DNA from: Planctomycetota bacterium
GTDB lineage: Bacteria > Planctomycetota > B15-G4 > SIAN01
Assembly (NCBI GenBank): GCA_031409275.1
Contig: JANNXA010000018.1
Span: 32,001 to 96,000 of the forward strand
Length of the DNA stretch: 64,000 nt
Reading direction: 5' to 3'
Under the pieces are notes generated by a model, which saw only the letters and a program-made list of their open reading frames with translations, ran no database searches and was not told where the DNA came from. The stretch's first letter is position 1, and every line of letters starts with the position of its first letter. This document shows positions 41,514 through 60,538 of this stretch, piece after piece. The position numbers were made by a program, and so were the translations under genes.

Positions 41514-42449
41514 ATGGCCGACCAGACCCCGCAACCGCCAAGCAGCGGCGGAACGCCGAATCCTCCGACACCGGTCCCGCCGGCCGCGGCTCCCGCCGCC
41601 GTCGCTGCGGCAAAGCCGGCCGCGAAGAAGGACGACGTTCGCATCGCGCCGCCGCAGAAGACCTACGTGCCGCGGCCGGGCCTGATGGACCAGATCAAGG
41701 ACAGCCAGATCTGGCGCTCGGTCTTCCGTCACGGCTACCCGAACACGGTGCGCAACCGGTCGCTGGCCGTGTTGTCGAACGTCTTCCTGCACCTTCACCC
41801 GGTGAACGTGCGGACCTCGGGCCTGCGCCTGTCGTTCACGTGGTGCATGGGCGGGCTGACCTTCTTCCTCTTCCTGGTCGAGGTCATCACCGGCGTCCTG
41901 CTGATGTTCTATTACCGGCCCACCGGCGAGTACGCGTATCGCGACATCATCGCGATGGCCGAGCACGTGCCGATGGGGATCATGCGCGAGATCCATCGTT
42001 GGTCGGCGCATGCCATGGTGATCACGGTCTGGTTGCACATGTTCCGCGTGTTCATGACCGGCTCGTACAAACCGCCGCGCGAGTTCAACTGGAACATCGG
42101 CGTGATCCTGCTCGTGCTGACCCTGCTGCTGTCGTTCACCGGCTACCTGCTGCCGTGGGATCAGCTCGCGATCTGGGCCATCACCGTCGGCTCGAACATG
42201 GCGCGCGCGACGCCGATCGCCGGTTACGAGGGGCCGCTCTCGTCGTTGATCACGATCGACGACGTGAAGCTGGTCCACTCGGGCGACGACATGCGCTTCG
42301 CGCTGTTGGGTGGGCGATTCGTCGGCGAAGCGACGTTGCTGCGCTTCTACGTGCTCCACTGCATCTTCATCCCGCTGGTCGCCACCATCTTGATGGCGGT
42401 CCACTTCTGGCGCATCCGCAAGGACGGCGGGATCTCGGGGCCGCTGTGA
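41514..42449 (+). CDS. Cytochrome b6-like subunit (N-terminal part of a split cytochrome b)
   Basis: WCMGG, HRWSAH...LHMFRVF, PPREFNW, GYLLPWDQ, LRFYVLH...VHF. Confidence 0.93.
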   Translation: MADQTPQPPSSGGTPNPPTPVPPAAAPAAVAAAKPAAKKDDVRIAPPQKTYVPRPGLMDQIKDSQIWRSVFRHGYPNTVRNRSLAVLSNVFLHLHPVNVRTSGLRLSFTWCMGGLTFFLFLVEVITGVLLMFYYRPTGEYAYRDIIAMAEHVPMGIMREIHRWSAHAMVITVWLHMFRVFMTGSYKPPREFNWNIGVILLVLTLLLSFTGYLLPWDQLAIWAITVGSNMARATPIAGYEGPLSSLITIDDVKLVHSGDDMRFALLGGRFVGEATLLRFYVLHCIFIPLVATILMAVHFWRIRKDGGISGPL

Positions 42450-42462
42450 GGAGGACACGGGC

Positions 42463-43533
42463 TTGAAGGACTTCTTCAACGCGCTCGCGAACCCGAGCTA
42501 CTTCTTCGCGATCTTCACGATCTCCGTCTTCGCGATGCTCAAGTGGCGCGAGTTCTTCACTGCGCCGAAGGTCGCGCTGTCGATCTTCGTGGCGGCGGTG
42601 ATCTTCTTCGTCTGGGCGGTCCGCGACCCGGGCTTCGCCGCGAACATCAGCAAGCCGGACAACATCCCGATCATCTTCATGCTGTTCCTGGTCGGGTACT
42701 TCTCGTGGCTGTCGCTCTATCGGGCGGTGCGCAACGATCGGCGCATCGACCGCGGCGAGTTGCCGGAGGAGGCGGTCGAGAGTCCGAAGAAGGTGCTGAC
42801 CTGGCCCGACCTCGTCTACAGCGAGTTCGTCTGCATGCTGATCGGGACGGCGGTGCTCCTGATCTGGGCGCTCGTGCTGAAGGCCCCGCTCGAAGAGCCG
42901 GCCAATCCGAACAAGACGCCGAACCCGTCCAAGGCACCTTGGTACTTCCTCGGCCTGCAGGAAATGCTGGTCTATTTCGATCCGTGGCTCGCCGGCGTGA
43001 TCCTGCCCGGCCTGATCGTGAACGGCCTCATGGCCATTCCGTACGTCGACACCAATCCGAAGGGCAACGGCTACTACACCTTCAAGGAACGACCGTTCGC
43101 GATCACGTCGTTCTTCTTCGGATTCGTCGTGCTGTGGGTCTCGATGATCGTGCTGATGACCTTCCTGCGCGGCCCGAACCAGGCGTTCTTCGGCCCCTTC
43201 GAGCCGTGGAACCTGCACAAGGTCGAGCCGACCGTGAACATCCAGTTCAGCCAGATCTTCTGGGAGCAGTGGCTCGGCACGAGTCGCCCGGTCGGCTGGT
43301 TCGTCCGCGAGTTGCCCGGCATCGCCTTGGTGGTCGGCTACCTCGCCGTGACGCCGATCCTGCTGGCGAAGACCGTGTGCAAGAAGCTGGTCGTCCAGAT
43401 GGGCAACGCACGCTACCTGACGATGATGATCATGTTCCTCATCATGGTCGCGATGCCCATCAAGATGGTGTTGCGTTGGGTGTTCAACTTGCAGTTCATC
43501 GTCAACATCCAAGAACTCTTCCTGAACATCTGA
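42463..43533 (+). CDS. Cytochrome b C-terminal / subunit IV-like protein with extra TM helices
   Basis: WPDL, APLEEPANP..TPNPSKAPWYFLGLQE, IPYVD; TTG start after GAGGAG. Confidence 0.85.
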   Translation: MKDFFNALANPSYFFAIFTISVFAMLKWREFFTAPKVALSIFVAAVIFFVWAVRDPGFAANISKPDNIPIIFMLFLVGYFSWLSLYRAVRNDRRIDRGELPEEAVESPKKVLTWPDLVYSEFVCMLIGTAVLLIWALVLKAPLEEPANPNKTPNPSKAPWYFLGLQEMLVYFDPWLAGVILPGLIVNGLMAIPYVDTNPKGNGYYTFKERPFAITSFFFGFVVLWVSMIVLMTFLRGPNQAFFGPFEPWNLHKVEPTVNIQFSQIFWEQWLGTSRPVGWFVRELPGIALVVGYLAVTPILLAKTVCKKLVVQMGNARYLTMMIMFLIMVAMPIKMVLRWVFNLQFIVNIQELFLNI

Positions 43534-43597
43534 GCTCGGACAGCGCGGGAACCAGGCCTCAAAGCGCCGACCAAGCGCAACGACCAGGAGCGGGAAC

Positions 43598-46500
43598 GTG
43601 GCGGACGAGGGCATCAGGGACGCAGGCGCGACCTTCTTCAACCTGAAGGCGATGAACCGTTGGTTCTTCGCGTCGGTGGCCGTTCTCACGGTCGCCTACT
43701 TCTGGTCGGTCGTGCAAGACCATGACCGCGAGTTCAAGTCGTACCAGGGCCGCTTCTTCGAGATGGAGCGGCAGCTCTCGGTGCAACAGGGCAACGCGGC
43801 CTTCAACGCAGCGGGCGGCGCGACGACGATCGGCGATGGCGCCGGCAACCCGGGCGAGCTTCGCGAGGAGATCGTGCGCCTTCAGGGGATGCTCGCGGCC
43901 GACCACGACAAGCGCCCCGAGCTCGCGCTGAAGCTCCATGACACGCAGTTCCACTTCGACGTGAAGAACGCCGAGATGAAGATGGCGAAGGCCGTCTTCG
44001 AGGCCGAGCGCTTCATCTACGAGGAACTCGCTCACCACCTGAATGAGCACGCTCTCGAAGCGCCGCACAGCGAAGAGGCGAAGGTCGCGTACGAGAAGTA
44101 CAAGGACCTGAAGCGGAAGTACGAGGAGCTCGACGAGGCCAACAAGCAGGCGGAGGCCGCTCGCGACGCCGCTCGCGACGAGCTCGCCCGTCTCGATGCC
44201 CTCGCCGGCGACGTGGCGGTCAAGCTCGAGGTGGCGGAGCGCGAGGTCGGGCGCCTCGAGAAGCGTGCCGATTCGCTTGACTCCGAGCGGCTCTTCACGA
44301 AGTTCCGCAACTCGATCTTCTTCAGCTTCATGTCGCCGACGCTGGCGCCCAAGAAGATCGTCGTGCCCGAGATCTTCGACGACCTGAACTTCCTGTCGGT
44401 CCCGAAGGTCGACATGTGCATCTCGTGCCATCTGGCGACCGACCGTTTCAAGGACTACCCCGCCGGCAATTCGCACGTCACCTTCGGCGACGAGAAGAAC
44501 GCGCTGCAGAACGAGGACGACTCGGCGGCGTTCCGCTCTCACAGCAAACCCGAGCTCTTCTGCACGTCACTTTCGCCGCACGGACAGGAGCGCTTCGGCT
44601 GCTCCGGGTGCCACGGCGGCGGCAACCAGCGCGCGAACTTCAAGCAGACGTGGCACACGCCGACTGACGCGCATGAGCGCGAGGTGTGGGAGGACGAACT
44701 CCATTGGCACCCGGTGCATGAGTGGGAATACCCCATGCTCGGTTCCAAGTTCCTCGACGCGTCGTGCTACAAGTGCCACCAGCAGGAAGTGCACATCCAG
44801 GGTGCGCCGACGTGGAACCGCGGTCGCGATCTCGTCGCGAAGCTCGGCTGCTTCGGCTGCCACAAGATGGCGCCGTTCGACGGCGCTCGCCGCGTCGGAC
44901 CGCCGCTCGGCCATGTCGCCACCAAGTTCTCCGACCTCGACTTCATGCTGAAGTGGGTCGATGAACCGGCGTCGTTCCGTCCCTCGACGCGCATGCCGGC
45001 CTTCTTCCATCGCGAGAATCGCGCGATGGAGCCGGGCCGTGATGCCGCCGAGATCACCGCGCTCGTCGCCTACCTCTACAACCTCTCGTCGCCGCAGGCG
45101 CTGAAGAGCTACCCGGGCAATGGCGACGCGGCGAAGGGCAAGCAGCTCTTCGGCGAGTCCGGCGGCGTCGGCTGCATGGGTTGCCACGGCATCGACGACT
45201 TCCCGGAAGAGGTCAACGATCGGGTGGCCAAGCTCGACGCCCTGCGCCACGGTCCGGAGCTCTCCGGAATCGGCAGCAAGGTCACGCCGGACTGGCTCTT
45301 CACCTGGCTCCTCGATCCCAAGAGCCTGTGGCCGCAGACCAACATGCCGAACCTCCGGCTCACCGAGCAGGAAGCGGCGGACCTGGTCGCCTACCTGATG
45401 ACGAAGCGCAACGTCGCCTTCGAGCAGCAGGTCTTCGAGAAGCCGGCCGATGACGCGCCCTTCGAGCAGATCCTCCTGGAGAAGCTCACCGAGCGAATGA
45501 CCGAGGCGCGCGCCACTCTCGATATCTCGGCGATGAGCGGCCTCGAGAAGCGACGCAAGGCGGGCGAGTACCTGCTCAATCACTACGGCTGCTTCGGCTG
45601 CCATGACATTCCGGGCTACGAGGATTCGAAGCCCATCGGTGCCGAGCTGAACGGCTGGGGCAGCAAGCATCCCGATCGCCTCGACTTCGGCATGGTCGAG
45701 TTCGAGTGGAAGAACCCCGAAGTCGGCAAGTTCAACCGCGAGAGCTGGATCGATCAGAAACTGAAGAACACCCGCTTCTACGATCGCGGCAAGGACAAGA
45801 AGCCGTTCGAGAAGCTGAAGATGCCGCAGTTCTCCCAGCTGATGGAGGGCGTGCCGGACGGCGATCGTGACGCGGTGATGACCTTCGTGTTGTCGCTGGT
45901 GAAGGACAACACGGCGGAGTCGATCAAGCGGCACCTGACGCCGGACGAGGCGGCGGTGGAGCGCGGCGCGAAGCTCGTTCGCGAGAAGAACTGCGTTGGC
46001 TGCCATCTGCTCTACGGCGAGGGTGGCGAGATTCGCCACTTCCAGTTCGGCGAGGCGGGCAAGGCGTTCTATCCGCCGATCCTCGATGGGCAGGGCGCGC
46101 GCACGCAGCCAGAGTGGCTGACGCACTTCCTCGCCGATCCGGTGTTCGGCAAGGGTGCCGGTGCGAAGGCGCATCTGCGTCCTTGGATGAAGGCGCGCAT
46201 GCCGACGTTCGGCTTCGACCAGTCGCAGCTGAACGACATCGTGGCCTACTTCGCGCACGAGAAGGTCTGGCACACCTCCACCGATCGAACCCTGTGGGAC
46301 TCGATCGCCACGAAGTTCCGCAAGGACTTCCTGGGCTACGAGGAGGCGCAGCTGCGCAAGGCCGACCACACCAAGGTCAAGCTCTTCCACGACCTGGTCG
46401 CGCGCACCTACGAGAAGCAGGGCGGCGGCTTCGTCTTCAAGTCGGACTACCCGTACATGGAGAAGCCGGCCGAGCTGGCCGGCGGCGATCTCGACAAGGC

Positions 46501-46837
46501 GCGCAATCTCTTCGAGAAGTTGCAGTGCGTCCTCTGCCACATGCCGGGCGGCGTCGTCCCGACGGGCAAGTCGGCCGCGGACATGGCGCCGGACCTGAGC
46601 TACGCCAGGGAGCGCCTGTCGCCGAGCTGGGTGCGCCACTGGCTCGAAGTTCCCGAGGTCTACCAGCCGGGCACGCGCATGCCGCCGTTCTGGAAGGTGG
46701 AGGGCGGCGTCCGGCCGAGCGTCGATCCCGACATCAACGACCCCGAACGCGAGATGTCGCTGTTGCGCGACTACCTTTTCTCCTCGCAGTTTGCTGCCGA
46801 CTACGAGCGCGTCGCCAAGAAGGCGCGGGGCGAGTGA
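43598..46837 (+). CDS. Membrane-anchored multiheme (8x CxxCH) cytochrome c
   Basis: CISCH, CSGCH, CYKCH, CFGCH, CMGCH, CFGCH, CVGCH, CVLCH; N-terminal TM helix and coiled coil. Confidence 0.92.
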   Translation: MADEGIRDAGATFFNLKAMNRWFFASVAVLTVAYFWSVVQDHDREFKSYQGRFFEMERQLSVQQGNAAFNAAGGATTIGDGAGNPGELREEIVRLQGMLAADHDKRPELALKLHDTQFHFDVKNAEMKMAKAVFEAERFIYEELAHHLNEHALEAPHSEEAKVAYEKYKDLKRKYEELDEANKQAEAARDAARDELARLDALAGDVAVKLEVAEREVGRLEKRADSLDSERLFTKFRNSIFFSFMSPTLAPKKIVVPEIFDDLNFLSVPKVDMCISCHLATDRFKDYPAGNSHVTFGDEKNALQNEDDSAAFRSHSKPELFCTSLSPHGQERFGCSGCHGGGNQRANFKQTWHTPTDAHEREVWEDELHWHPVHEWEYPMLGSKFLDASCYKCHQQEVHIQGAPTWNRGRDLVAKLGCFGCHKMAPFDGARRVGPPLGHVATKFSDLDFMLKWVDEPASFRPSTRMPAFFHRENRAMEPGRDAAEITALVAYLYNLSSPQALKSYPGNGDAAKGKQLFGESGGVGCMGCHGIDDFPEEVNDRVAKLDALRHGPELSGIGSKVTPDWLFTWLLDPKSLWPQTNMPNLRLTEQEAADLVAYLMTKRNVAFEQQVFEKPADDAPFEQILLEKLTERMTEARATLDISAMSGLEKRRKAGEYLLNHYGCFGCHDIPGYEDSKPIGAELNGWGSKHPDRLDFGMVEFEWKNPEVGKFNRESWIDQKLKNTRFYDRGKDKKPFEKLKMPQFSQLMEGVPDGDRDAVMTFVLSLVKDNTAESIKRHLTPDEAAVERGAKLVREKNCVGCHLLYGEGGEIRHFQFGEAGKAFYPPILDGQGARTQPEWLTHFLADPVFGKGAGAKAHLRPWMKARMPTFGFDQSQLNDIVAYFAHEKVWHTSTDRTLWDSIATKFRKDFLGYEEAQLRKADHTKVKLFHDLVARTYEKQGGGFVFKSDYPYMEKPAELAGGDLDKARNLFEKLQCVLCHMPGGVVPTGKSAADMAPDLSYARERLSPSWVRHWLEVPEVYQPGTRMPPFWKVEGGVRPSVDPDINDPEREMSLLRDYLFSSQFAADYERVAKKARGE

Positions 46838-46849
46838 TTTGCGGAGTGA

Positions 46850-46872
46850 TTGAGATCTGAATCAGATCTCAA
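46850..46872. promoter_or_regulatory. Perfect AT-rich palindrome in the intercistronic gap
   Basis: TTGAGATCTGA-A-TCAGATCTCAA (11-bp arms), flanked by GGAG/CTCC. Function unassigned. Confidence 0.5.
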
Positions 46873-46893
46873 CTCCACGTGAGGAACCGAACC

Positions 46894-47733
46894 ATGAAGC
46901 GATCGAACGAAAAGACCCTCTGGATGCTCGCGCTCGGCATTGCCGGCATCGCGCTGGGTGCTGCCTGCGGCGGCGGTGAGTCGCGCAGCCGCAAATCCAT
47001 TCGCGGCAACGTGGAAAATTCGGCGGCGGCACCCGCGCCGGGCGCATCCGGTGGTGCGGCTACGACGCAGGCCGCCGGTGGCCCGAAGAAGGTCGATCCG
47101 GCGACGGCGGGCACGATCACCGGAATCGTCAAGTGGGACGGTGCGCGCCCGACGCCCGAGGCGCTCGACCTGTCGGGCAACCCCGACTGCTCGAAGGCGA
47201 TCAAGGAGACGGTCTACAAGGAAGACCTCGTCGTCAACGCCGACAACACTGTGGCGTTCGCGTTCGTTTCGATCGACACCAACGATGTCTACGAGACTCC
47301 GACCGAGCCGGTCGTCATCGACCAGATCGGCTGCCACTACGTGCCGCACGTCCTCGCTGCGATGGTCGGGCAGAAGATCAAGATCAAGAGCTCGGACGCG
47401 ACGCTGCACAACGTCCACTACCTCGGAACGGTGAACACCGACCTCGAGGACAACTTCGCGATGCCGGCTCCCGGTGTTCGCGAGCGCTCCTTCACTGCCG
47501 CCGACTGGGTGAAGTTCAAGTGCGACGTGCATCCGTGGATGGGCGCGTGGCTCGCCGTGAGGTCGCACCCGTTCTTTGCGGTCACGGGCACGGATGGCAA
47601 GTTCACCATCGCCAGCGTCCCCGCCGGGACGCACAAGCTCGTGATGAAGCACGAGTCGCTCGGCGAGCAGTCGGTGACGGTGACGGTCGAGGCCGGCAAG
47701 ACGGCCACCGCTGAGTTCACGCTGAAGAAGTGA
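46894..47733 (+). CDS. Lipoprotein with cupredoxin-like and carboxypeptidase-regulatory-like domains
   Basis: Lipobox-like LGAAC; DQIGCHYVPHV, HNVH, KCDVHPWM; C-terminal GKFTIASVPAGTHKL. Confidence 0.8.
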   Translation: MKRSNEKTLWMLALGIAGIALGAACGGGESRSRKSIRGNVENSAAAPAPGASGGAATTQAAGGPKKVDPATAGTITGIVKWDGARPTPEALDLSGNPDCSKAIKETVYKEDLVVNADNTVAFAFVSIDTNDVYETPTEPVVIDQIGCHYVPHVLAAMVGQKIKIKSSDATLHNVHYLGTVNTDLEDNFAMPAPGVRERSFTAADWVKFKCDVHPWMGAWLAVRSHPFFAVTGTDGKFTIASVPAGTHKLVMKHESLGEQSVTVTVEAGKTATAEFTLKK

Positions 47734-47806
47734 CCGACGTCTGTCTGGCCCGCGACGCGTGATGCGTCGCGGGCCTGCTGTTTGGAACGACGCCCCGGAG
47801 GCGCTC

Positions 47807-48652
47807 ATGCCGCAGGTTCGACCGCCCGATTTCGGCGAAGCGTGGAAGTGGTGGCTCCCGCCGCACTACTCCTCGTTCGGTGACGACATCGACTTGATGT
47901 TCCATTGGATCTTCTGGATCACGATGGTGACGTTCGTCGGTGTCGAGCTGGCGCTGCTGTACTTCTGCTTCAAGTACAAGAAGAACCCCGCCCGCAAGGC
48001 GACCTACACGCACGGCAGCCACTCGCTCGAAGTGGCGTGGACGGTGATTCCGGCGGTGATTTTGGTGGGTCTCGGCGTCGCCAGCACCAAGCTGTGGGCG
48101 ACCATCAAGAACCCGACGGACTCCGACTATCCCAAGGAGTTCCAGACGACTGTCAAGATCGCCGCCAAGCAGTTCGCCTGGAACGTCACCTACCCCGGGA
48201 TCGACAAGCAGTTGGGCACGGACGACGACTTCACCGAGACGAACATCCTGAACGTCCCGTACGAGCCGATCGACGCCGAGGGCAACGCCACGACCGAGGA
48301 GAACGTCCGCGTCATGCTGACGTCGATGGACGTCATCCACTCGTTCTTCGTGCCGGTGCTGCGCCTGAAGCAGGACGCAGTTCCCGGCTACATCGGCAAC
48401 GTCTGGTTCGACGTGCAGCGAATGACCTATCCGGGCCCCGACAAGAAGCACCTGACCAACGACACCAAGCCCTCGGACGACGGGATCACTCTCGTCGACT
48501 GGGAAGAGAGCTACGAAGTGGCGTGTGCCGAGCTGTGCGGCCTGGGCCATTCGCAGATGCGCATGCAGTTGAAGGCGGTGCCGCGCGCGGACTGGGAAGC
48601 GTGGGTCGCGGTGAAGTCGGCCGCTGCCAAGCAGCGCGCCGCCTCCAAGTGA
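47807..48652 (+). CDS. coxB: Cytochrome c oxidase subunit II
   Basis: LEVAWTVIP, DVIHSF, KQDAVPG, CuA motif CAELCGLGHSQM. Confidence 0.95.
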   Translation: MPQVRPPDFGEAWKWWLPPHYSSFGDDIDLMFHWIFWITMVTFVGVELALLYFCFKYKKNPARKATYTHGSHSLEVAWTVIPAVILVGLGVASTKLWATIKNPTDSDYPKEFQTTVKIAAKQFAWNVTYPGIDKQLGTDDDFTETNILNVPYEPIDAEGNATTEENVRVMLTSMDVIHSFFVPVLRLKQDAVPGYIGNVWFDVQRMTYPGPDKKHLTNDTKPSDDGITLVDWEESYEVACAELCGLGHSQMRMQLKAVPRADWEAWVAVKSAAAKQRAASK

Positions 48653-48721
48653 TCGCGCGACCCCGCTCGTTGCGCCCGCACTTCTGTCCAAACGATCGAA
48701 TCCGGCTTGGAGCCGAATGAC

Positions 48722-50719
48722 ATGAGCACGACCGCCACCGCCCCAGCCCACGCGGACCCTGCCGCCGGGCACGGCCATCACGAGCTCTCGTTCCTGCGCA
48801 AGTGGGTCTTCTCGACCGACCACAAGGTGATCGGGCTGCAGTACCTCTTCTGCTGCCTCTTCACGCTGATGGTCGGCGGCCTGCTCGCGCTGATGGTTCG
48901 CTGGCAGATCGCCTATCCGGCCGGCGCCAAGCCGACGCAAGAGCAGGTGCAGGAGCTGCGCGACCGTGGATTGTCGGGCGCTGAGCTCTCCGCAGAGCTC
49001 GCGAAGATCGACAACGATCGCCCGTTCCCGATCCTCGGCGAGGTTCTTTGGGGCGAGCACCTCGAACCCGAACTGGTGAACAACGGCGAGATCGGCGAGC
49101 CCGGCTTCTTCGGCAACAGCAACGGGATGATGCCGGCCGAGTGGTACAACGTCGCCTTCACCATGCACGCGTCGGTGATGATCTTCCTGGTCATCATTCC
49201 GATGCTGACCGGCGCGTTTGGCAACTGGGTCATCCCATTGCAGCTCGGTGCCAAGGACATGGCGTTCCCGTTCTTGAACGGGTTGTCGTTCTGGACGTGG
49301 ATCTGCGCGGTCCTGATCCTCTTCGCCAGCTTCTTCGTGACGCCCAACGGCGTCGGCGCTGGCGCGGGCTGGACTTCCTACCCGCCGTTGAGCGGCGTCG
49401 TGAGCCCGTCGGCCGGACCTGGCCAGACACTCTGGTGCATCGGGGTGATCATCGGCGGAACGTCCTCGATCATGGGGGCGATGAACTACATCACCACGAT
49501 CGTCAACCTGCGCGCGCCAGGGCTCACGCTCTTCCGCATGCCGCTGACGACATGGGCGGCGTTCATCACCGCGATCCTGCAGCTCTTCGCGACGCCAGTC
49601 CTCTCCTCCGCGATGGCGATGCTGCTGTTCGACCGCCATGCGGGAACCAGCTTCTTCCTCCCTGAAGGGCTGGTCTTCAGCGATGCGCCGGTACCCAACG
49701 CCGGCGGCGGCCAGGTGATCCTCTGGCAGCACATCTTCTGGTTCTATTCGCACCCGGCCGTCTACATCATGATCCTGCCGGCGATGGGCATCGTCTCGGA
49801 CGTGATCGCGGTCTGGTCGCGCAAACCGGTCTTCGGCTACCGGCCGATGGTCTACTCCATGTCCGCGATCGCCGGGCTCGGCTTCGTGGTGTGGGGACAC
49901 CACATGTTCCAGTCGGGCATGAACCCGGTGCTCGGAACCACCTTCATGATCTCGACGATCATGATCGCGCTGCCAAGTGCCGTGAAGGTCTTCAACTGGC
50001 TCGGAACCTTGTGGGGTGGGCAGATCACCTTCTCGCCCGCGCTCCTGTTCGCGCTTGGGTTCGTCTCGATGTTCGTGATCGGCGGCCTGTCCGGCATCTA
50101 CATGGCCAACGCGCCGTTCGACATGTTCATCCACGACACCTACTTCATCGTGGCGCACATCCACTACGTGCTCTTCACGGGCTCGGTGATGGGCATCTTC
50201 GCGGGCATCTACCACTGGTTCCCGAAGATGTTCGGGCGCCACATGAATGACGGGCTCGGCAAGCTCCACTTCTGGCTGACGTTCGTCTTCATGAACGGCG
50301 TCTTCTTCCCGATGCACATCATCGGGCTCGGCGGCTACCCGCGCCGTTACGCGAGCTTCCGCGGCTACGACTTCCTCGCGCCGTACGAGGGCATGAACAT
50401 CTTCATGACCTGGTGCGCCATCCTGCTCGGACTTTCGCAGCTCGTCTTCCTGGCGAACTTCTTCGGCGGGATCCTGTTCGGGCGCAAGACGACGAGCGAC
50501 AACCCTTGGCACGCCAGTTCGCTGGAGTGGTCGACGTCGACCCCGCCGCCGCACGGCAACTGGATCGGACCAGTGCCGACCGTGTACCACGGTCCCTACG
50601 AGTACAACCACCCCAACTGCAAGGAGGACTACGCTCCGCAGTGGATGCCGATGCAGCTGAACGCTGCGGCAACGGCGCCTGCGGCGACGGCGCCGGTGGC
50701 GACGACGCCGGGTCACTGA
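48722..50719 (+). CDS. coxA: Cytochrome c oxidase subunit I (type A2)
   Basis: TDHKVIG, DMAFP, FWFYSHPAVY, WGHHMF, VAHIHYV, PRRY. Confidence 0.97.
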   Translation: MSTTATAPAHADPAAGHGHHELSFLRKWVFSTDHKVIGLQYLFCCLFTLMVGGLLALMVRWQIAYPAGAKPTQEQVQELRDRGLSGAELSAELAKIDNDRPFPILGEVLWGEHLEPELVNNGEIGEPGFFGNSNGMMPAEWYNVAFTMHASVMIFLVIIPMLTGAFGNWVIPLQLGAKDMAFPFLNGLSFWTWICAVLILFASFFVTPNGVGAGAGWTSYPPLSGVVSPSAGPGQTLWCIGVIIGGTSSIMGAMNYITTIVNLRAPGLTLFRMPLTTWAAFITAILQLFATPVLSSAMAMLLFDRHAGTSFFLPEGLVFSDAPVPNAGGGQVILWQHIFWFYSHPAVYIMILPAMGIVSDVIAVWSRKPVFGYRPMVYSMSAIAGLGFVVWGHHMFQSGMNPVLGTTFMISTIMIALPSAVKVFNWLGTLWGGQITFSPALLFALGFVSMFVIGGLSGIYMANAPFDMFIHDTYFIVAHIHYVLFTGSVMGIFAGIYHWFPKMFGRHMNDGLGKLHFWLTFVFMNGVFFPMHIIGLGGYPRRYASFRGYDFLAPYEGMNIFMTWCAILLGLSQLVFLANFFGGILFGRKTTSDNPWHASSLEWSTSTPPPHGNWIGPVPTVYHGPYEYNHPNCKEDYAPQWMPMQLNAAATAPAATAPVATTPGH

Positions 50720-50813: not shown

Positions 50814-51779
50814 TTGTTGAACGCGAATCCCCCCGCTGCCGTGATCGAACCGAGCAGCAGCGCTGCCGCGCTCGAGCGTCCGCGCCACGCGGGGCGCCAC
50901 CGATTCGCCTGTTTCCACGTCTGCGCGACGTTCTGTCTGATCGCGTTTGGCGCTTCGGTGACCAGCAATGACGCCGGTCTCGCGGTCCCCGACTGGCCGA
51001 CGACCTACGGCGACCTGAATCCGATCGCGCCGTATTTGCGCGGCCTGGTCAGCGGACTGATCGCGTTGGAGCACAACCACCGCGTGATCGGGATGGTGGT
51101 CGGATTGCTGACCATCGCGCTGTGCGTCTGGATCTGGCGCACCGCGGAGACGACCCTGGTGAGACGCCTGGGAGTCATCCTCCTCGTCGCCGTCTGCGTG
51201 CAGGGCGGACTCGGCGGACTCACCGTGCACATGAAGCTGCCTGCAGCGGTCTCGATCGCGCACGGCATGCTCGCGCAGTCGTTCTTCTGCCTCTCGATCG
51301 CGACCGCCTATCTCCTCGCGGGGGAGGCCCGCGCTGCAGGCGGAAGCATCGCGCGCGGCTCGCCGACCGCCGCGGCGCGCTCGCTGCAGCGCTCGGCGGC
51401 GCACGTCTTCATCGCGGTCTTCCTGCAGCTCTTCTTCGGGGCGCTGGTGCGTCACACGGTTGCCAAGTGGCGCGTCCCGACCTTCGGCGACACGCCGGTC
51501 CTGCTGCACATGCTCTTCGCTCTGGTGGTGTTGTTGGTCGTCGGCCGCTTCGTCGCAAAGGTCACTTCCGAGTCGCCGCCGGGCTCCCGTCTTTCGGCTC
51601 CGGCGATCGCTCTCGCAGCGCTGGTCCTCGCGCAGTTGCTGCTCGGGCTGTTCGCGGTCGCGACACGGACCGATCCGCTCGTCACCGTGCTCCACGTCAT
51701 CACGGGCGCCTCGATCCTCGGGACGAGCCTCTTCACGTGGTTGCGCAGCCATCGCCTGGCGGCGCGGGAGCCGGCATGA
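50814..51779 (+). CDS. ctaA: Heme A synthase (COX15/CtaA)
   Basis: GLAVPDWP, EHNHR, QGGLGGLTV, three further TM histidines; start uncertain (50814-50841). Confidence 0.85.
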   Translation: MLNANPPAAVIEPSSSAAALERPRHAGRHRFACFHVCATFCLIAFGASVTSNDAGLAVPDWPTTYGDLNPIAPYLRGLVSGLIALEHNHRVIGMVVGLLTIALCVWIWRTAETTLVRRLGVILLVAVCVQGGLGGLTVHMKLPAAVSIAHGMLAQSFFCLSIATAYLLAGEARAAGGSIARGSPTAAARSLQRSAAHVFIAVFLQLFFGALVRHTVAKWRVPTFGDTPVLLHMLFALVVLLVVGRFVAKVTSESPPGSRLSAPAIALAALVLAQLLLGLFAVATRTDPLVTVLHVITGASILGTSLFTWLRSHRLAAREPA

Positions 51780-52630
51780 GGCTGCCGTCGCTGCGCGATC
51801 TGGTGATGCTGACCAAGCCGCGCATCGTCGTCGCCGGTGCGATGGCAGCGCTGGCTGGGTACCTGGCGCCGCGGGATCACGTGCAGATCGGACCGCTGCT
51901 CGAAGCGCTCGCGGCGATCGGCGGCATCACGGCCGCCGCCGGAATCCTCAATCAGGTGCTCGAGCGCGATGTCGACGCCCTCATGCCGCGCACCGCGGGC
52001 CGCCCGCTTCCTGCGGGACGAGTCGACGTTTCGTTCGCGATCCTGCTCGGGTGCCTCCTCGCGGCGGCGAGCCTCGCGCTGACGGCGTGGCGCATCAACG
52101 GCCTCACCGCGGCGCTCATGCTGTTCGCCTTCGTCTCGTACCTCTTCGTCTACACGCCGCTCAAGCGCCACACGACGCTCAACACCTTCGTCGGCGCGGT
52201 GCCCGGCGCGCTGCCGCCGGTGCTCGGATGGGCCGCCGCGTGCAACGACCTCGGTCGCGGCGCCTACGCGCTGTTCGCGATCCTCTTCCTCTGGCAGTTG
52301 CCGCACTTCCTCGCCATCGCATGGCTCTATCGGCGCGACTACGAGCTCGGCGGATTGAAGATGCTCCCGGCGCGCGATCCCGATGGGGAACTGGTGTCGC
52401 GCCAGATGTGCATGCACGCCGTGTCGCTGTGCCTCGCGGCGATGCTGCCGTTCATCTTCCGCATGGCGGGGCCGGTTTACCTCGTCGGCTCCTTGCTGCT
52501 TGGCATCAGCTTCGCGGTTCCGGCGTTCCGCTTCTGGCGCGTACGCAGCGACGTGCGCGCGCGCCAGGTGATGCGCGCCTCGTTGATCTACCTGCCCGGC
52601 ATCCTCTTCCTTCTGGCGCTCAAGGCATGA
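51776..52630 (+). CDS. ctaB: Protoheme IX farnesyltransferase (heme O synthase)
   Basis: LTKPRI, NQVLERDVDALMPRT..RPLP, YTPLKR, WQLPHF. Confidence 0.95.
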   Translation: MRLPSLRDLVMLTKPRIVVAGAMAALAGYLAPRDHVQIGPLLEALAAIGGITAAAGILNQVLERDVDALMPRTAGRPLPAGRVDVSFAILLGCLLAAASLALTAWRINGLTAALMLFAFVSYLFVYTPLKRHTTLNTFVGAVPGALPPVLGWAAACNDLGRGAYALFAILFLWQLPHFLAIAWLYRRDYELGGLKMLPARDPDGELVSRQMCMHAVSLCLAAMLPFIFRMAGPVYLVGSLLLGISFAVPAFRFWRVRSDVRARQVMRASLIYLPGILFLLALKA

Positions 52631-52953
52631 ACACCTCCGCCCGCGAGGAAAGCCGCGCCCCCGCGCGAACTCCACCGATCGAGCCGCCGATGGACGCGAG
52701 CCTCGACGAAGCGGTGCGCCGACGGCGACTGCGCCGCTTCGGCCTCGCGCTTGCGGCCGTCGTCGTGCTGCTCGTGCTCTTCGCGGTCGGCTACGTCAAG
52801 TTGTTCGACCGCGTGCTCGCCGATCCGTCGCGCCCGCCGACCGCCACCGCCGCACCCAATCCACGCGTCCTCACCTTCGAGTTGCTGCTCGCCGCGGCGA
52901 TCGCGGTCGGTGCCACGACGTGGTGGGTGCGCCGCCAAAGGCGAACGCCATGA
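52627..52953 (+). CDS. Small two-TM hypothetical protein
   Basis: ATGA overlaps with both ctaB and the SCO gene; two hydrophobic helices. Confidence 0.7.
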   Translation: MNTSAREESRAPARTPPIEPPMDASLDEAVRRRRLRRFGLALAAVVVLLVLFAVGYVKLFDRVLADPSRPPTATAAPNPRVLTFELLLAAAIAVGATTWWVRRQRRTP

Positions 52954-53681
52954 CCGAACCGACCGATCCCGCGCCCCCCTCGAAGTCGACGGCGGCCGCA
53001 CCGGCGCGGCCGGGCTCCTTCGCGCCGATCGCCCTCGGCATCGCGCTCATGCTTCTGATCGCGGTCGTCATCCAGCGCATGCAGCGCGGTGGCGAGCCCG
53101 TCGGAAGCGGCGCGCAGGACGTGACCGCCAAGGGCGCGAAGCTCGCGGTGTGGGGGCCGATGCCCACGCTCGAACTCGTCGACTCGTCGGGTCGTCCCTT
53201 CGCGCTGGCGGGCCAGAAGGGGCGCGTCACGGTCGTGAACTTCTTCTTCACCGGCTGCCCGGGTCCGTGCGTCGACCTCACGCAGAAGGTGCGCACGTTG
53301 ATGTCGAGCTTCCGCGCGCAGCCCGACGTCGACTTCGTCAGCATCAGCGTCGATCCCGAAGCGGACACGCCGGACCAGCTCACCACGTTCGCGCGGGTGC
53401 AAGGCGGCGAGTTCCCGCGCTGGCATTGGTTGACGGGGACGAAGGAGCAGATCACCGCGGTCTGCCTCGGCTTCTTCGCGCCGTTCGGCGACAAGGACGA
53501 TGCGGGCGACATCGTCCACTCGACCAAGCTCTACGTGGTCGATCGCGAAGGGCGCATCCGCTCGATGGTCAACACCCAGATCGATCCCGATTGGCTCGGC
53601 TCGGCTGCGCACGCCATCCGGCTGCTGATCGCCGGCGACGCAGGCGCGGCGGATGCCGAGCTGCCGTCGAAGTCGCCCTGA
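52950..53681 (+). CDS. SCO1/SenC copper chaperone
   Basis: TM helix, FFFTGCPGPC (CxxxC), SISVDPEADTP, IVHS, VDREGRIR. Confidence 0.93.
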   Translation: MTEPTDPAPPSKSTAAAPARPGSFAPIALGIALMLLIAVVIQRMQRGGEPVGSGAQDVTAKGAKLAVWGPMPTLELVDSSGRPFALAGQKGRVTVVNFFFTGCPGPCVDLTQKVRTLMSSFRAQPDVDFVSISVDPEADTPDQLTTFARVQGGEFPRWHWLTGTKEQITAVCLGFFAPFGDKDDAGDIVHSTKLYVVDREGRIRSMVNTQIDPDWLGSAAHAIRLLIAGDAGAADAELPSKSP

Positions 53682-53694
53682 GATCCACGCCCCG

Positions 53695-54144
53695 ATGTTG
53701 TTGCTCGCCTTCCATCTGCCGACGCTGAACGCCTGCCTCAACGCGCTGGCCGCGGTGCTGCTGACCTGCGGCTACATCGCCATTCGCCGCCGCGCGATCG
53801 AGGTGCACAAGCGTTGCATGCTGGCCGCGTTCGCGACCTCGACCGTCTTCCTGGTCTGCTACCTGATCCACAAGGCGACTGCCGGTCACACGTCGTTTCC
53901 AGGCAGCGGCGGCGCGAAGAAGATCTACCTCACGATCCTGCTGACTCACACCGTGCTTGCGGCGAGCGTGGTTCCGCTGGCGCTGTTGACGATTCGCGCG
54001 GCGCTCACGAAGCGCTTCGAGCGCCACAAGAAGCTGGCGCGCGTCACCTTTCCGATCTGGCTCTACGTCTCGGTGACCGGGGTCGTGATCTGGTGGTTCC
54101 TCTACTCGGGCACGTTCGATCCAGCCGTGACGACGCCGCGCTGA
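53695..54144 (+). CDS. DUF420 family (CtaM-like) oxidase assembly membrane protein
   Basis: LPTLNACLN, HKRCM, FLVCYL, HKKLARVTFPIWLYVSVTG. Confidence 0.9.
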   Translation: MLLLAFHLPTLNACLNALAAVLLTCGYIAIRRRAIEVHKRCMLAAFATSTVFLVCYLIHKATAGHTSFPGSGGAKKIYLTILLTHTVLAASVVPLALLTIRAALTKRFERHKKLARVTFPIWLYVSVTGVVIWWFLYSGTFDPAVTTPR

Positions 54145-54212
54145 CGGCTCGCGATGGACCCGACGCTTCGGCTTCGCGGCGGCTCGATCGACCGGCTGCT
54201 ATGGTGGCGCCC

Positions 54213-54530
54213 ATGACGTCGTCCGCGAAGCCATCGCTGCGGTCCATCGCGCATCGCGCCGCCGCGTGGTGCCGGTTCGCGCTGCTCGCGGCGTTGCTGC
54301 TCGGCGGTCCGCTGCCGCGGGCGGCGGCGCAATGTTCGATGTGAAAAGCTTCGGCCTACGATCAGGTGGATCGTGCCCAAAGTGATCGGCTCGGCTCGGC
54401 GTTCAACCTCAGCGTCTACTGGATGCTGGCGGTGCCAGGCCTGATGATCGCCGGATTGGCGACCTTGATCGCGGTGAACGTGCGCGCCCGCGTGCGCCTC
54501 GAAGCGCAGTCGACGCACGACCGCCAATGA
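54213..54530 (+). CDS. Candidate selenoprotein: exported, membrane-anchored 105-aa protein with CxxU motif (in-frame TGA at 54342-54344)
   Basis: MTSSAK...FALLAALLLGGPLPRAAA-QCSM-U-KASAYDQVDRAQSDRLGSAFNLSVYWMLAVPGLMIAGLATLIAVNVRARVRLEAQSTHDRQ*. The frame stays open for 61 codons after the TGA and ends in an ATGA overlap with dapF; a SECIS-like hairpin follows the TGA. Confidence 0.8.
54348..54383 (+). promoter_or_regulatory. Putative bacterial SECIS element
   Basis: GCTT-c-GGC-ct-ACGATC-[AGGTG]-GATCGT-GCC-ca-AAGT; the apical loop AGGU starts 20 nt after the UGA. Confidence 0.75.
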
Positions 54531-55375
54531 GCTCGCTGCCGTTCGTCAAGCTGCATGGCTGCGCCAACGACTACGTCCTGATCGATGGCGACGTGGTCGC
54601 GTCCGCGGAACTCGGCGCGTTCGCGCGCGCGGCGTGTGATCGGCGCCGCAGCGTCGGAGCCGATGGCGTGCTGGTGGTGCTGCCGTCGCCGGTGCCGGGC
54701 GCGTCGGCGCGCATGGCGATGATCAACCCCGACGGCAGCGAAGCGGAGATGTGCGGCAACGGGCTGCGCTGCCTCGGCAAGTTCCTCTTCGATCGCGGGC
54801 GGGTCGCGCGCGAGTTCGCCGTGGAAACTCGTGCCGGAGTCGTGCCGATGGTGGTCGAGGAGGTCGATGGCGCGGGCCACGCGACCCTTCTCACCGCGAC
54901 GATCGGCGTGCCCGACTTCCGCCGCTCTGCGGTTCCGATGGCGGGTCCACCGGAAACTCCCGCGCTCGACGAATCGTTCGCGCTGGCGGGCCGCACGCTG
55001 CGGCTCACGGCGCTGCGTCTGGGCAATCCCCATGCGGTGGTCTTCGTCGACGACGTGTTGCACTACCCGGTGCATTCGGTCGGGCCCGCGCTCGAGCACG
55101 ACCCGCGCTTCCCGGCGCGGATCAACGTCGAGTTCGTCGAGGTCGTCGCGCCCGACCGACTGCGCCAGCGGACCTGGGAGCGCGGCGCCGGCGAGACGCT
55201 CGCTTGCGGCAGCGGCGCGACCGCGGCGGCCATCGCCGCGCGGAAGGTCCGCGGCTTCCCGGCGGTCGTGCGGGTGGAACTGCAAGGCGGGGAACTCACC
55301 GTGCGATGGGGCGGGGCGGGCGAGCCGGCCCATCTGACGGGCCCGGCGATCGAGTCCTTCCGCGGCACGCTCTGA
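54527..55375 (+). CDS. dapF: Diaminopimelate epimerase
   Basis: FVKLHG.AND, EMCGNGLRC, GNPHAV, NVEF, ERGAGETLACGSG. Confidence 0.96.
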   Translation: MSSLPFVKLHGCANDYVLIDGDVVASAELGAFARAACDRRRSVGADGVLVVLPSPVPGASARMAMINPDGSEAEMCGNGLRCLGKFLFDRGRVAREFAVETRAGVVPMVVEEVDGAGHATLLTATIGVPDFRRSAVPMAGPPETPALDESFALAGRTLRLTALRLGNPHAVVFVDDVLHYPVHSVGPALEHDPRFPARINVEFVEVVAPDRLRQRTWERGAGETLACGSGATAAAIAARKVRGFPAVVRVELQGGELTVRWGGAGEPAHLTGPAIESFRGTL

Positions 55376-57418: not shown

Positions 57419-60400
57419 TCAGCGCGGTGTCGTGCCGGAGACCGCGTTGGTCATCGCAAAGCCGTCAGCGGCGCCCGGATCGAGCACGAGCGCCTGGAGG
57501 AAGAAGCTCTCGCCGCCCGGGATGTCATCGCTGATGCAGTCGGAGTAGCTGAGTGTGCCGTTGCCGTCCGTGAACAGACCCGAGAGAACGATGTCGGGTG
57601 CCGGCACCAGCACGCCGCCGACGAACGGCAGACAGGTCGGCGTCAGTCCGACGACGAGCCACGCCGGCGCATTCGCCAACGCGCCGGTGACGTCGGCGGT
57701 GATCAACGTGAGCGGTCGCATGTCGCCGGTCATGGTCAACACCGGCGCACCATTGGTCCCGGCCAGTGCATGGCCGAGGTCGGCCCACGCGCCGGTCGGC
57801 TCGCTGCGGAAGCGAACCGTGCAATAGAGCTGCGTCGGGTCGACGCTGGCGGCGGTGATCGCCGCGCCGTCGCAAGGGGACGCGTCCTGGAACGAGAGGC
57901 CGCCCGTCGTGACGAGCGGTCCGTCGACGAGCGGGCCACTGATGGCCGTCGCGCGCAGCTTGGAGACTCGCACCGCGAGGCGATAGAGCCGACCCGGAGC
58001 GAGCGTCGCATCGATCGTGTGGTAGTTGCGATCGTTGCGGACGCGAACTCCGTAGCTGCGCAGCCCGCCCTCCGCCAGCACCGGGTTCAGCGGGTCGGTC
58101 ACGTCCCAGACGAAGACGTTCCCGAAGACGCCGCTGCAGTTGACGGCCGGAGCGAGCTGACCGTCGATCACGAGCTCTTCGAGGCGTTCTGCGGTGGCGG
58201 CGCCAGTCGTGTCGATCTCCATGCCGACGAACCAGTTGCTGGCGGGAGATGGACTCGGAGCGGGTAGCGGCGTGTCGATGCCGGCCAGCACGAGGCCGCC
58301 GTTCACCGTGGTCAGCGGCTCGATCGGCGCGCCGGGCACGAAGTCGCAGCCGTCGATCCGCACGCGCCCGCTGCGGAAGACGACGATTTCGCGATCCTGC
58401 AGTTGCGCGAGGTCGAGATCTCCGAGCACCGGGTTCACGTGGCGATCGACACGCATGGTCTTCTGCGCGGCGTTGCCTTTGAAGTCGACGATCACGCGGA
58501 AGTGGACGTCCTTGGAGGGATCGGGGTCGGGGTCGACCGGCAACGCGAAATGGAGCACGTACTCGTTCTGGTTCAGGTAGCCGGCCGAGGTCGAGACGAC
58601 CTTGGTGCGGCGGTTGGTGTCGGTCGGGTGGTCGAACGGGACGATCGTGACCTGCGCGCCGAACTCCGATTCGAGCCCGTCATCGAAGCGATCGGAGTCG
58701 CGCATGACGCGCACGCGCACGTGACGCTTCTGATCGGCGGGGGTGTTGGCGTCGTAGGTGTAGTTCTCGTACAGGCGTCCCTTCTCGCCCCAGTTGCCCA
58801 GCGCCGAGTCGAGGTCGCCGTCCTTGTCGAAGTCGCCCCAGGCCGGCGTGGCGTCCGTCACGTGGCCGGCCGGGATGCTGTGGGTGGCGACCGTGAAGTG
58901 GCGATCGCCGCCGGTCTCCTGGAACTGGTTGCGGCGGAACACTTCGCTGCTGGTCACGTCGACGTCGCCGTCGTTGTCCCAGTCCTCGAAGGAGAGGCCG
59001 AGGCACAGGCCGGTGTTGAACGAGTCGAAGAGGCTCTTGTTCTGGACCTTGAAGGTGCCGTCACCGAGGCTCTCGAACATGCGCACGCCCTTGGTGCTGT
59101 CGCAGAAGGCGAGGCAGAGGTCCATGTCCCCGTCCATGTCGTAGTCGAGGAAGCCGCCGCCCTCGTCGAGGATGTCGCTGAAGACCACTCCGGAGCCGTT
59201 CTCGGTCATCGCCTCGAAGAGCGGATTGCCGAGCGTCGAGAGGTTCCGGTAGATCGTGTTGTTCGAGTAGAGGTCGAGGTCGCCATCGAGGTCGACGTCG
59301 ACCCACTCGGCCCCCTCGGGTCGGTTCACCGGTAGCGGCGGGTTGTCGAGGCCGGCCTGCGCCGAGAGTTCACGGAAGGTGTAGACGCCGTTGGCGTCGG
59401 GCCCGTCGTTGTAGAGGAAGAAGTTCCCCGGCCCGCCGATCCACGACGGATAGACCGGGAAGAACCAGTCGAGGTTGGCGTCGCCGTCGATGTCAGCGAC
59501 CGAGTTCGTCTCGCAAGGCGCGATGGGGCGCACGTCGACGCGGTTGGGGTTGCCGCTGATCTCCTCGAAGACGTCGCCACCGAGCGCATGGAGGAAGTAG
59601 GCACCGCCGACGCGCGGCTCGTCGCAGATGTCGAGCAGCTGGTCGTTGTCGTAGTCCGCCATCGCGCAGCCGTAGCGCGTGCCCTTGCCCATGTAGACCG
59701 ACAAGTCGATCTGCTTGACCCAGTCGGCACCCGCGAGGTTCCGCCAGAGCGCCTCGCCATCGGCATTCACCACGTCGATCCAACCGTCGTGGTCGTAGTC
59801 GCCGAAGCTGATGCCGAAGGTGGCGCCGAAGATCAGCCCGGAGGAGAACGAGCCGCCCTTCCAGAGCTGCAGCGGCACGTCATCGGCCGCCGGTCCGAAC
59901 CGTGAACTCGTCGAGTAGCTCGTCGAGTGAAGCGCCAGCACGGCGCCTTGCGACTTGCCGACGAGGATGTTGTTGGGCATCCACGCCATGCGCCAGACGT
60001 CGTCGGGACCGGGCGGCAAAGCGGGCGCCCACTCCTCCGGGAAGGTCCCGCCGACCATCGCGTCATCGCGCCATTCGCGCGAGTAGACGACGTTGGTGAT
60101 CGGCGAACGTCCGGTGTTGCGCAAGGTCACGCCGATCACCAATGCTCCGGTGAACGGGCAGAAGGAGAAGGTGTGCTCGATCTCGAGCGCGCCGACCTTG
60201 CTGACCGTCACGGCGCCGCTCGCCGTGAAGCTGCTCGAGACGGGAGTCACCGGCGTCCGCCGGGCGTAGTCGGCGTTCGGTCCCGCGCCGACGGCGCTCA
60301 CATGTCCGCCGAGCGTGTCGAACGACAATCCGAACCACTCGGCCGTTCCTGGCGAGAACTCGATCTGCGGCCCATAGGTGGTGCAGAGTCCTTCGGCGGG

Positions 60401-60538
60401 CGGCGCCAGCATCACTCCGATCGGATCGAGACGCACCGAGTACTGCCCGTTGCTGATCGATTGCGCGGCTGCAGTCGCGCTGATCGCGGCGATCGCGGCC
60501 GGCAGCGCAACGCGCGAAAGGAAGGTGGGTGGACTCAT
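57419..60538 (-). CDS. Large secreted FG-GAP/VCBS-repeat (CRTAC1-like) protein
   Basis: Signal peptide ending AAA-Q; GDYDHDGWID, ADYDND, DWDNDGDVD, GDFDKDGDLD repeats; C-terminal domain. Confidence 0.9.
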   Translation of the reverse strand: MSPPTFLSRVALPAAIAAISATAAAQSISNGQYSVRLDPIGVMLAPPAEGLCTTYGPQIEFSPGTAEWFGLSFDTLGGHVSAVGAGPNADYARRTPVTPVSSSFTASGAVTVSKVGALEIEHTFSFCPFTGALVIGVTLRNTGRSPITNVVYSREWRDDAMVGGTFPEEWAPALPPGPDDVWRMAWMPNNILVGKSQGAVLALHSTSYSTSSRFGPAADDVPLQLWKGGSFSSGLIFGATFGISFGDYDHDGWIDVVNADGEALWRNLAGADWVKQIDLSVYMGKGTRYGCAMADYDNDQLLDICDEPRVGGAYFLHALGGDVFEEISGNPNRVDVRPIAPCETNSVADIDGDANLDWFFPVYPSWIGGPGNFFLYNDGPDANGVYTFRELSAQAGLDNPPLPVNRPEGAEWVDVDLDGDLDLYSNNTIYRNLSTLGNPLFEAMTENGSGVVFSDILDEGGGFLDYDMDGDMDLCLAFCDSTKGVRMFESLGDGTFKVQNKSLFDSFNTGLCLGLSFEDWDNDGDVDVTSSEVFRRNQFQETGGDRHFTVATHSIPAGHVTDATPAWGDFDKDGDLDSALGNWGEKGRLYENYTYDANTPADQKRHVRVRVMRDSDRFDDGLESEFGAQVTIVPFDHPTDTNRRTKVVSTSAGYLNQNEYVLHFALPVDPDPDPSKDVHFRVIVDFKGNAAQKTMRVDRHVNPVLGDLDLAQLQDREIVVFRSGRVRIDGCDFVPGAPIEPLTTVNGGLVLAGIDTPLPAPSPSPASNWFVGMEIDTTGAATAERLEELVIDGQLAPAVNCSGVFGNVFVWDVTDPLNPVLAEGGLRSYGVRVRNDRNYHTIDATLAPGRLYRLAVRVSKLRATAISGPLVDGPLVTTGGLSFQDASPCDGAAITAASVDPTQLYCTVRFRSEPTGAWADLGHALAGTNGAPVLTMTGDMRPLTLITADVTGALANAPAWLVVGLTPTCLPFVGGVLVPAPDIVLSGLFTDGNGTLSYSDCISDDIPGGESFFLQALVLDPGAADGFAMTNAVSGTTPR

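Follow-up and report, generated by a model that had tools for sequence, protein, structure and literature searches.

A probable selenoprotein gene beside the cytochrome oxidase assembly genes of a Planctomycetota bacterium and its widespread, unnamed family

We describe a small gene from a Planctomycetota bacterium that we conclude to be real and that very likely encodes a selenoprotein, a member of a family of membrane-anchored proteins that is widespread and has no name. The gene was found within the window, which is the whole stretch of 64,000 nucleotides of contig JANNXA010000018.1 that we analyzed. It occupies positions 54213..54530 on the + strand and specifies a 105-residue precursor, or ~66 residues when mature, with an in-frame TGA codon that would encode selenocysteine (Sec, U). 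Although the mode of decoding is known, the family itself, its tie to oxygen respiration, and the variety of positions that Sec takes among its members appear to be undescribed.

Reading frame and predicted protein

A preliminary description of this DNA, prepared from its letters alone, had proposed that an apparent gap of about 380 bp between a DUF420 gene and dapF holds one reading frame broken only by a TGA. Our translation of 54213-54530 agrees with that proposal, and the gap measures 382 bp from the DUF420 stop (54144) to dapF (54527). The single internal stop in the + strand frame, TGA 54342-54344, follows the residues ...PLPRAAA-Q-C-S-M and is followed in turn by 61 sense codons and a terminal TGA (54528-54530) that overlaps the dapF ATG (54527-54529), two further features of the preliminary description that were borne out. 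Alternative in-frame ATG/GTG starts are located at 54201/54204, and no sigma-70 promoter or terminator was detected in 53900-54700.

The precursor contains two hydrophobic stretches, one at approximately residues 16-34, which corresponds to the h-region of a signal peptide, and one at residues 65-88, within which the best 19-residue window scores 2.08. The signal peptide (54213..54329, +), which is predicted to be cleavable based on the A-x-A pattern, ends in A-A-A, and the P-L-P-x-A-A-A-Q of the predicted cleavage region is invariant in seven family members. Together, the h-region and the A-A-A end predict the signal peptide and the Q-C-S-M mature start that had been anticipated. The mature N-terminus is predicted to be Gln 54330-54332. 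The C-S-M-U motif (54333..54344, +) begins at the next residue, and both Cys columns of the motif are invariant in a 64-row alignment in which TGA is read as C. The second stretch is predicted by hydropathy and AlphaFold2 to form a single transmembrane helix (54405..54476, +), presumably oriented N-out and C-in. Such a helix had been proposed in the preliminary description. The tail behind it, said there to be basic, is only mildly so because it has four K/R and two D/E. The AlphaFold2 model (mean pLDDT 87.6, pTM 0.55) is all-helical and lacks a thioredoxin fold, featuring a signal helix, a short helix that bears the motif, and one long helix that passes through the membrane; the outer part of the protein comprises ~25 residues. 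We have good confidence that the signal peptide is cut after A-A-A, such that Q-C-S-M-U would start a short outer helix that leads into the membrane helix.

In family members with the reversed motif, UxxC, A-x-G/A precedes Sec, and Sec itself would be residue 1 after cleavage. The Met of C-x-M-U, which the preliminary description had offered as a possible copper ligand, did not hold up across the family, as only 3 of 42 UxxC members keep it. Because Met is so rarely kept in these members and His follows the motif in none of 125 members, the family has no conserved third ligand.

Conservation and decoding of the TGA codon

A search of 61 genomes with the read-through protein yielded matches in seven, the source genome included. 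Among other same-family genomes, six of seven carry one TGA at the same column within C-[AS]-M-U, and 17 of 18 metagenome loci feature the TGA form, with the remaining, distant locus encoding Cys. Forty loci from a genome collection divided into six of the same-family TGA form and 34 that encode C-[AS]-M-C, mostly from Bacteroidota and Acidobacteriota. These distant relatives have Cys in the column of the TGA, as expected from the earlier proposal that the codon stands at the second Cys of a CxxC motif. The putative Sec codon (54342..54344, +) thus lies in a conserved column at which homologues carry either Cys or TGA, and conservation continues beyond it, which the preliminary description had held to be necessary. 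The frame remains open for 47 codons past the TGA in 16 of 17 distinct close relatives, and the other two frames contain stops in 17 of 17 and 12 of 17. Seven close library proteins with Cys (P0003-6, P0008-10) have drifted in the residues encoded by the hairpin described below, a comparison made at the protein level only. Two others, P0007 and P0012, begin after the UGA, which matches the expectation that standard pipelines would truncate or miss the gene.

The codon is covered in contigs from four of four public DNA runs with no other letter; the runs all come from one study, from which this DNA may itself derive, and contribute contigs, not raw reads. An assembly error at the TGA, which had been raised as a possible objection, is excluded better by the independent relatives than by the public-run contigs. 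In one metagenome relative, L245, a TAG stands seven codons beyond the TGA, replacing a Gln codon inside the stem of the hairpin. This locus keeps the TGA and the hairpin, as the TAG change preserves pairing (G-U), and we regard it as a broken copy or a sequence error.

Behind the TGA is a SECIS-type hairpin (54357..54375, +) with a 7-bp stem and the 5-nt loop AGGUG, where the loop starts 20 nt after the UGA (19 nt spacing). All seven pairs hold in seven of seven family genomes, with a compensatory change in two of the seven by which one A-U pair becomes G-C, and synonymous variation is 0.14-0.16 within the hairpin versus 0.32 outside of it. In the portion of a 2026 review covered here, the bacterial SECIS (bSECIS) model calls for a loop of 3-9 nt with G in the first two loop positions, a stem of 4-16 bp, a distance of 16-37 nt from the UGA, and an energy of at most -7.5 kcal/mol (PMC13188914). 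With its 5-nt loop, 7 bp, 19 nt spacing, and -12.1 kcal/mol (for the 40 nt after the UGA), the candidate hairpin conforms to this model. However, shuffled sequences are as stable as the region itself (z 0.03), a competing fold has the lowest energy when 59 nt are folded, and the hairpin emerges as the prediction only for pieces of 40-45 nt of the gene.

A rule based on a GG-loop hairpin, which was written after the hairpins were seen, captured 45 of 65 TGA codons and left out the other 20, and it captured 9 of 185 Cys codons and 588 of 9856 (6%) random TGAs. The UxxC members have a hairpin of their own, with the loop GGUC located 18 nt after the UGA, in which 87.8% of cells are paired and 36 double changes are spread over five of six pairs. 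The covariation score of this hairpin was reached by none of 500 shuffles, slid controls pair in 37-72%, and C-P-x-C relatives have only 41% of the same cells paired. For the two UxxU forms, L190 (G359) and L213 (G314), the rule holds only for the second UGA of G359; both first codons fail, and G314 fails for both UGAs.

The preliminary description had named selA, selB, selC, and selD as genes to look for, and all four were found in the genome, with selC encoding a tRNA-Sec with a TCA anticodon and each gene passing curated cut-offs. The selD gene of this genome has its own in-frame TGA. The selA and selD genes are adjacent at the end of contig C40, with selC ~47 kb away, and selB is on contig C29. 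Among 119 Planctomycetota genomes, which include kin that are not independent, selA is present in 64 of 65 with TGA forms and in 27 of 54 with Cys-only forms, and the sole TGA-form genome without selA is 67% complete. Because TGA is also used as an ordinary stop in the source genome (e.g., DUF420, 54142-54144), genome-wide recoding is not the explanation. From these sequence comparisons, we are close to certain that TGA 54342-54344 would be read as selenocysteine, and we hold with equal assurance that SelB bound to the hairpin would insert Sec at the UGA. It is very improbable that the TGA instead ends translation, arose through misassembly, or is recoded as Trp or Gly, and that the gene is truncated or dead, as the TGA is kept across many families and aligns to Cys at two positions, each with its own hairpin, TGA forms occur nearly only in genomes with selA, and ordinary genes here end in TGA. 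Such a reading could still draw on a hairpin that is not unusually stable, on the apparently broken L245, and on readthrough being a prediction from sequence.

A genome-wide scan for TGA followed by a hairpin returned 133 matches, which are mostly chance and do not amount to a selenoproteome. Other likely Sec codons in the genome occur within E-S-C-U (C23 near 25248, -), F-G-S-F-T-U (C30 near 5828, -), and Y-C-T-A-U (C51 near 318725, -). We take the second of these contexts to be deiodinase-like, and the third is presumably SelW/Rdx-like.

Breadth of the family and placement of Sec

An alignment search gave matches in 120 of the 401 Planctomycetota genomes sampled, and TGA-bearing family members occur in 65 of the 401. 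We typed 136 Planctomycetota loci, which comprise the matches of the 120 genomes, four more same-family genomes, and one further match. The motif is CxxC in 62, UxxC in 42, CxxU in 20, and UxxU in 2, with the remaining loci consisting of seven adjacent pairs (five UU from TGA-TGA and two CU) and three non-members. Sec can take the first, the second, or both positions of the motif, or lie in an adjacent pair. Neither this freedom of position nor the SECIS-type hairpin features in the preliminary description. Tandem TGA-TGA codons (K-U-U, G-U-U) were observed in L211 (G408), L212 (G275), L218 (G080), L224 (G113), and L225 (G145), and C-U stands in place of CxxC in L188 (G230) and L220 (G368). 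These tandem-TGA and C-U genes are near coxA, coxC, or cox4, each with a GC-rich hairpin behind it. Within a sample of Acidobacteriota, 48 of 151 genomes matched, a tally that includes two unpublished genomes (G448, G473); all nine typed loci have Cys, and TGA occurs in 2 of 54 matches, both of which are untyped.

In a tree built from a short alignment, most CxxU members group with Q-C-x-M-C members and the outgroup rows, and most UxxC members group with C-P-x-C members. A single clade of all Sec forms was rejected (p 0.024, 58 columns), which lends weak support to separate gains of Sec, as the trees are built on just 58-72 columns and most of their branching is unresolved.

A single-sequence search of a 5.8-billion protein set found nothing. 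An alignment search returned 726 proteins, and nearly all of the named ones among the 120 listed are called 'hypothetical'. Querying the ESM Atlas with the Cys homologue P0003 gave unnamed clusters only, at 0.88, which we treat as a lead only. No real Pfam or NCBIfam match was obtained for 64 and 132 members (for the 64-member sets, among the best 25 of 27 and 35 weak families), and the PDB searched by sequence gave no usable match. Foldseek returned none at E 0.001, and the best VIA-align Z was 5.9, with nearly all rows being plain long helices; structure search cannot place so short a helical hairpin.

The candidate resembles the SelB/bSECIS-dependent CxxU/UxxC selenoproteins in its in-frame UGA aligned to Cys, the bSECIS-type hairpin behind it, and the presence of selABCD. 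It differs from the entries of a published selenoprotein table, in the portion covered here, in that Sec may occupy one Cys position, the other, or both, or form an adjacent UU, which is a motif unlisted there (PMC13188914). The preliminary description did not recognize the protein as a member of a described selenoprotein family, and we likewise found no catalogue entry, as that portion of the table has no row among its 119 families for a signal peptide-CxxU-single-helix protein or an oxidase assembly factor (PMC13188914). The covered portions of deep-Sep (PMC12013277), SelCysML (PMC13745706), PMC9402790, and PMC8552683 make no mention of it, and no description of the family was found in the open-access library searched. 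This comparison extends up to the family list of BSepDB, which stands outside of it; the first part of the BSepDB supplement holds genome accessions only (PMC13326102).

Oxidase context and proposed role

The gene is part of an oxidase cluster on the + strand. The head of the cluster (41514..47733) encodes a cytochrome b, a subunit-IV-like protein, a multiheme cytochrome c, and a carboxypeptidase-regulatory-like protein. These genes are followed by coxB (47759-48652) and coxA (48707-50719), which encode subunits II and I of an A-family cytochrome c oxidase, by the heme A synthase gene ctaA (50814-51779), and by the heme O synthase gene ctaB (51776-52630). The sco gene (SCO1/SenC; 52920..53681; PF02630, E 9e-22) is two genes upstream of the candidate, and the gene for a DUF420 protein of the CtaM type (53653..54144; PF04238, E 3e-43) is directly upstream.

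Several other features of this region were noted. The cytochrome b and subunit-IV-like genes resemble ExtP/ExtQ, below cut-off, and the multiheme cytochrome c has 1079 residues. Between ctaB and sco is a 108-residue gene (52627-52953, +) with two hydrophobic stretches and no Pfam or NCBIfam match, in whose place same-genus genomes have a weakly similar sequence. The coxC gene is outside this cluster, on contigs C19 and C27, and the window also contains two tandem FG-GAP/ASPIC-UnbV genes of ~1040 residues (57419-60538 and 60651-63791, -).

Across the family, the gene mostly follows sco-ctaM (DUF420) or coxC-cox4, and the small C-x-M-C proteins that the preliminary description had placed beside SCO/DUF420 were indeed found. 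Within the fetched 1.7-5.3 kb, an oxidase-cluster gene is present at 107 of 133 member loci, with DUF420 at 71 of 133. Such a gene also accompanies 30 of 34 distant Cys loci. Among 33 loci that were picked mostly for lacking sco/DUF420, and for which 145 of 165 called frames were scanned, 16 are beside coxA, coxC, or cox4 and 17 are without an oxidase gene nearby. DUF420 occurs in 114 of 119 genomes with the gene versus 50 of 282 without it. Conversely, 50 of 164 DUF420 genomes have no family match, and 38 of the 40 DUF420-only loci fetched from those 50 hold no member (the other two hold one divergent UxxC, in G303, and one doubtful CxxC), which indicates that the protein is not needed everywhere.

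According to the portion of PMC9145763 covered here, Bacillus subtilis requires CtaM (DUF420) to form aa3 and caa3, where it probably serves CuB or a late step, and for CuA the partner of Sco is PCuAC or a different small copper protein. Searches of five genomes detected PCuAC and Cox11 in none and Caa3_CtaG in one. The source genome gave none of the three, and its absences are soft because it is 92.9% complete. One genome, G367, has both the family gene and Caa3_CtaG. We consider a role in biogenesis of the A-family oxidase to be probable, in which the protein would work together with Sco and CtaM.

The best functional analogue is CutF/DUF2946 (PF11162), which is likewise a small protein with a signal peptide and a Cys motif encoded beside a copper enzyme. 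The covered portion of PMC8456105 describes CutF, a small protein with a Cys motif, as necessary for a multicopper oxidase. CutF-like proteins come from Proteobacteria and carry a PP motif at the C-terminus, whereas the candidate ends ...THDRQ with no PP, and the CXXC of DUF2946 is central, whereas the motif of the candidate is at the mature N-terminus and is accompanied by a membrane anchor (PMC8456105). PF11162 had no match among 132 Cys members, nor among the Pfam matches listed. The copper chaperones of family A oxidases, which are Cox11/CtaG (PF04442), PCuAC (PF04314), and Sco (PF02630; PMC9145763), have folded domains much longer than the outer part of the candidate and gave no match.

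Other resemblances were set aside. The GSU3128 family (NF041047), a distant AhpD homologue with CxxU, is likewise a small CxxU protein; one weak match (E 0.052) among 64 members, under the 110-bit cut-off, was treated as chance, and the NF041047 model gives no match at this gene in five genomes searched to E 1. A thioredoxin-fold protein of the CxxU/UxxC type (TlpA, DsbA, SelW) was rejected based on the 66-residue mature chain, the all-helical model, and the lack of a Pfam match, as was a c-type cytochrome (CxxCH), given that the His after the motif is missing in all 125 members.

We propose that the gene encodes a small exported, membrane-anchored selenoprotein that would display an N-terminal Cys-x-x-Sec pair at the outer face of the membrane. 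The pair may function as a two-ligand Cu(I) relay that does the job performed elsewhere by PCuAC or Cox11/CtaG, and gene context and motif together point to a possible hand-over of Cu(I) to the A-family oxidase encoded upstream; both suggestions are plausible, if short of probable. The relay is preferred because the known chaperones are missing, a catalytic fold is lacking, the positions of Sec are interchangeable, and CutF offers an analogy. In particular, a Sec that may be first, second, both, or adjacent would be a better fit for a pair of equivalent ligands than for one fixed nucleophile. That variation, which includes collapse of the motif to adjacent CU/UU in seven loci, also argues against a minimal thiol/selenol reductant whose task would be to maintain the Cys pairs of Sco or apo-subunit II (CuA) in reduced form, like TlpA in Bradyrhizobium. 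We judge this role for the same selenoprotein to be rather unlikely, as there is no thioredoxin or other catalytic fold and no DsbD/CcdA-type partner was seen in the cluster. However, redox motifs usually take the form CxxU or UxxC in the covered portion of the published table (PMC13188914), many members have C-P-x-C, and 71 of 133 loci have the gene behind sco-ctaM, as determined by DUF420 match; furthermore, CuA assembly needs reduced Cys, and many bacteria are without a TlpA homologue (PMC9145763, in the portion covered).

The second gene context, in which the gene follows coxC or cox4 without sco/DUF420 nearby, raises the question of whether the protein is a small subunit that stays in the oxidase, or in a bc-oxidase supercomplex, with a chalcogen pair that binds a structural metal or guards against oxidants. 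In its size and its one helix the protein resembles an accessory subunit, and in L048 the gene start overlaps the cox4 stop. However, the gene is among assembly genes in most Planctomycetota loci, coxC is on other contigs here, and no solved oxidase chain matches by sequence, which together make a permanent subunit improbable. A selenoprotein of general envelope copper/redox homeostasis that merely tends to sit in oxidase clusters is more doubtful still: it would fit the 17 of 33 selected loci without an oxidase gene, and neighbours that include cation-efflux, thioredoxin, and peroxiredoxin genes, but it sits poorly with the 107 of 133 Planctomycetota and 30 of 34 distant loci that are in oxidase clusters of two gene orders.

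In its fullest form, the proposal of a Cu(I) relay is tentative. The protein would deliver copper to family A heme-copper oxidases, as a factor not described so far that replaces PCuAC/Cox11 across Bacteroidota, Acidobacteriota, and Planctomycetota, and Sec would have been gained more than once in Planctomycetota, at opposite positions and also as U-x-x-U and tandem-UGA Sec-Sec. It would represent the first bacterial selenoprotein that serves oxygen respiration, with a selenolate-copper hand-over.

Not all oxidase assembly proteins are likely to be known in any organism, as stated in the covered portion of PMC9145763, and bacterial selenoproteins are described in that of the 2026 review as belonging predominantly to anaerobic pathways, with aerobes rarely retaining them (PMC13188914). 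A selenoprotein family tied to an oxygen-reducing oxidase, which is without a family model and is cut by gene callers, contrasts with this anaerobic bias. The Cys form is found in cultured Bacteroidota and Planctomycetota, which makes a missing assembly factor directly testable. Furthermore, the UxxC, CxxU, UxxU, and tandem-UGA forms provide a natural series in which to ask how a single hairpin can serve either one UGA codon or a pair.
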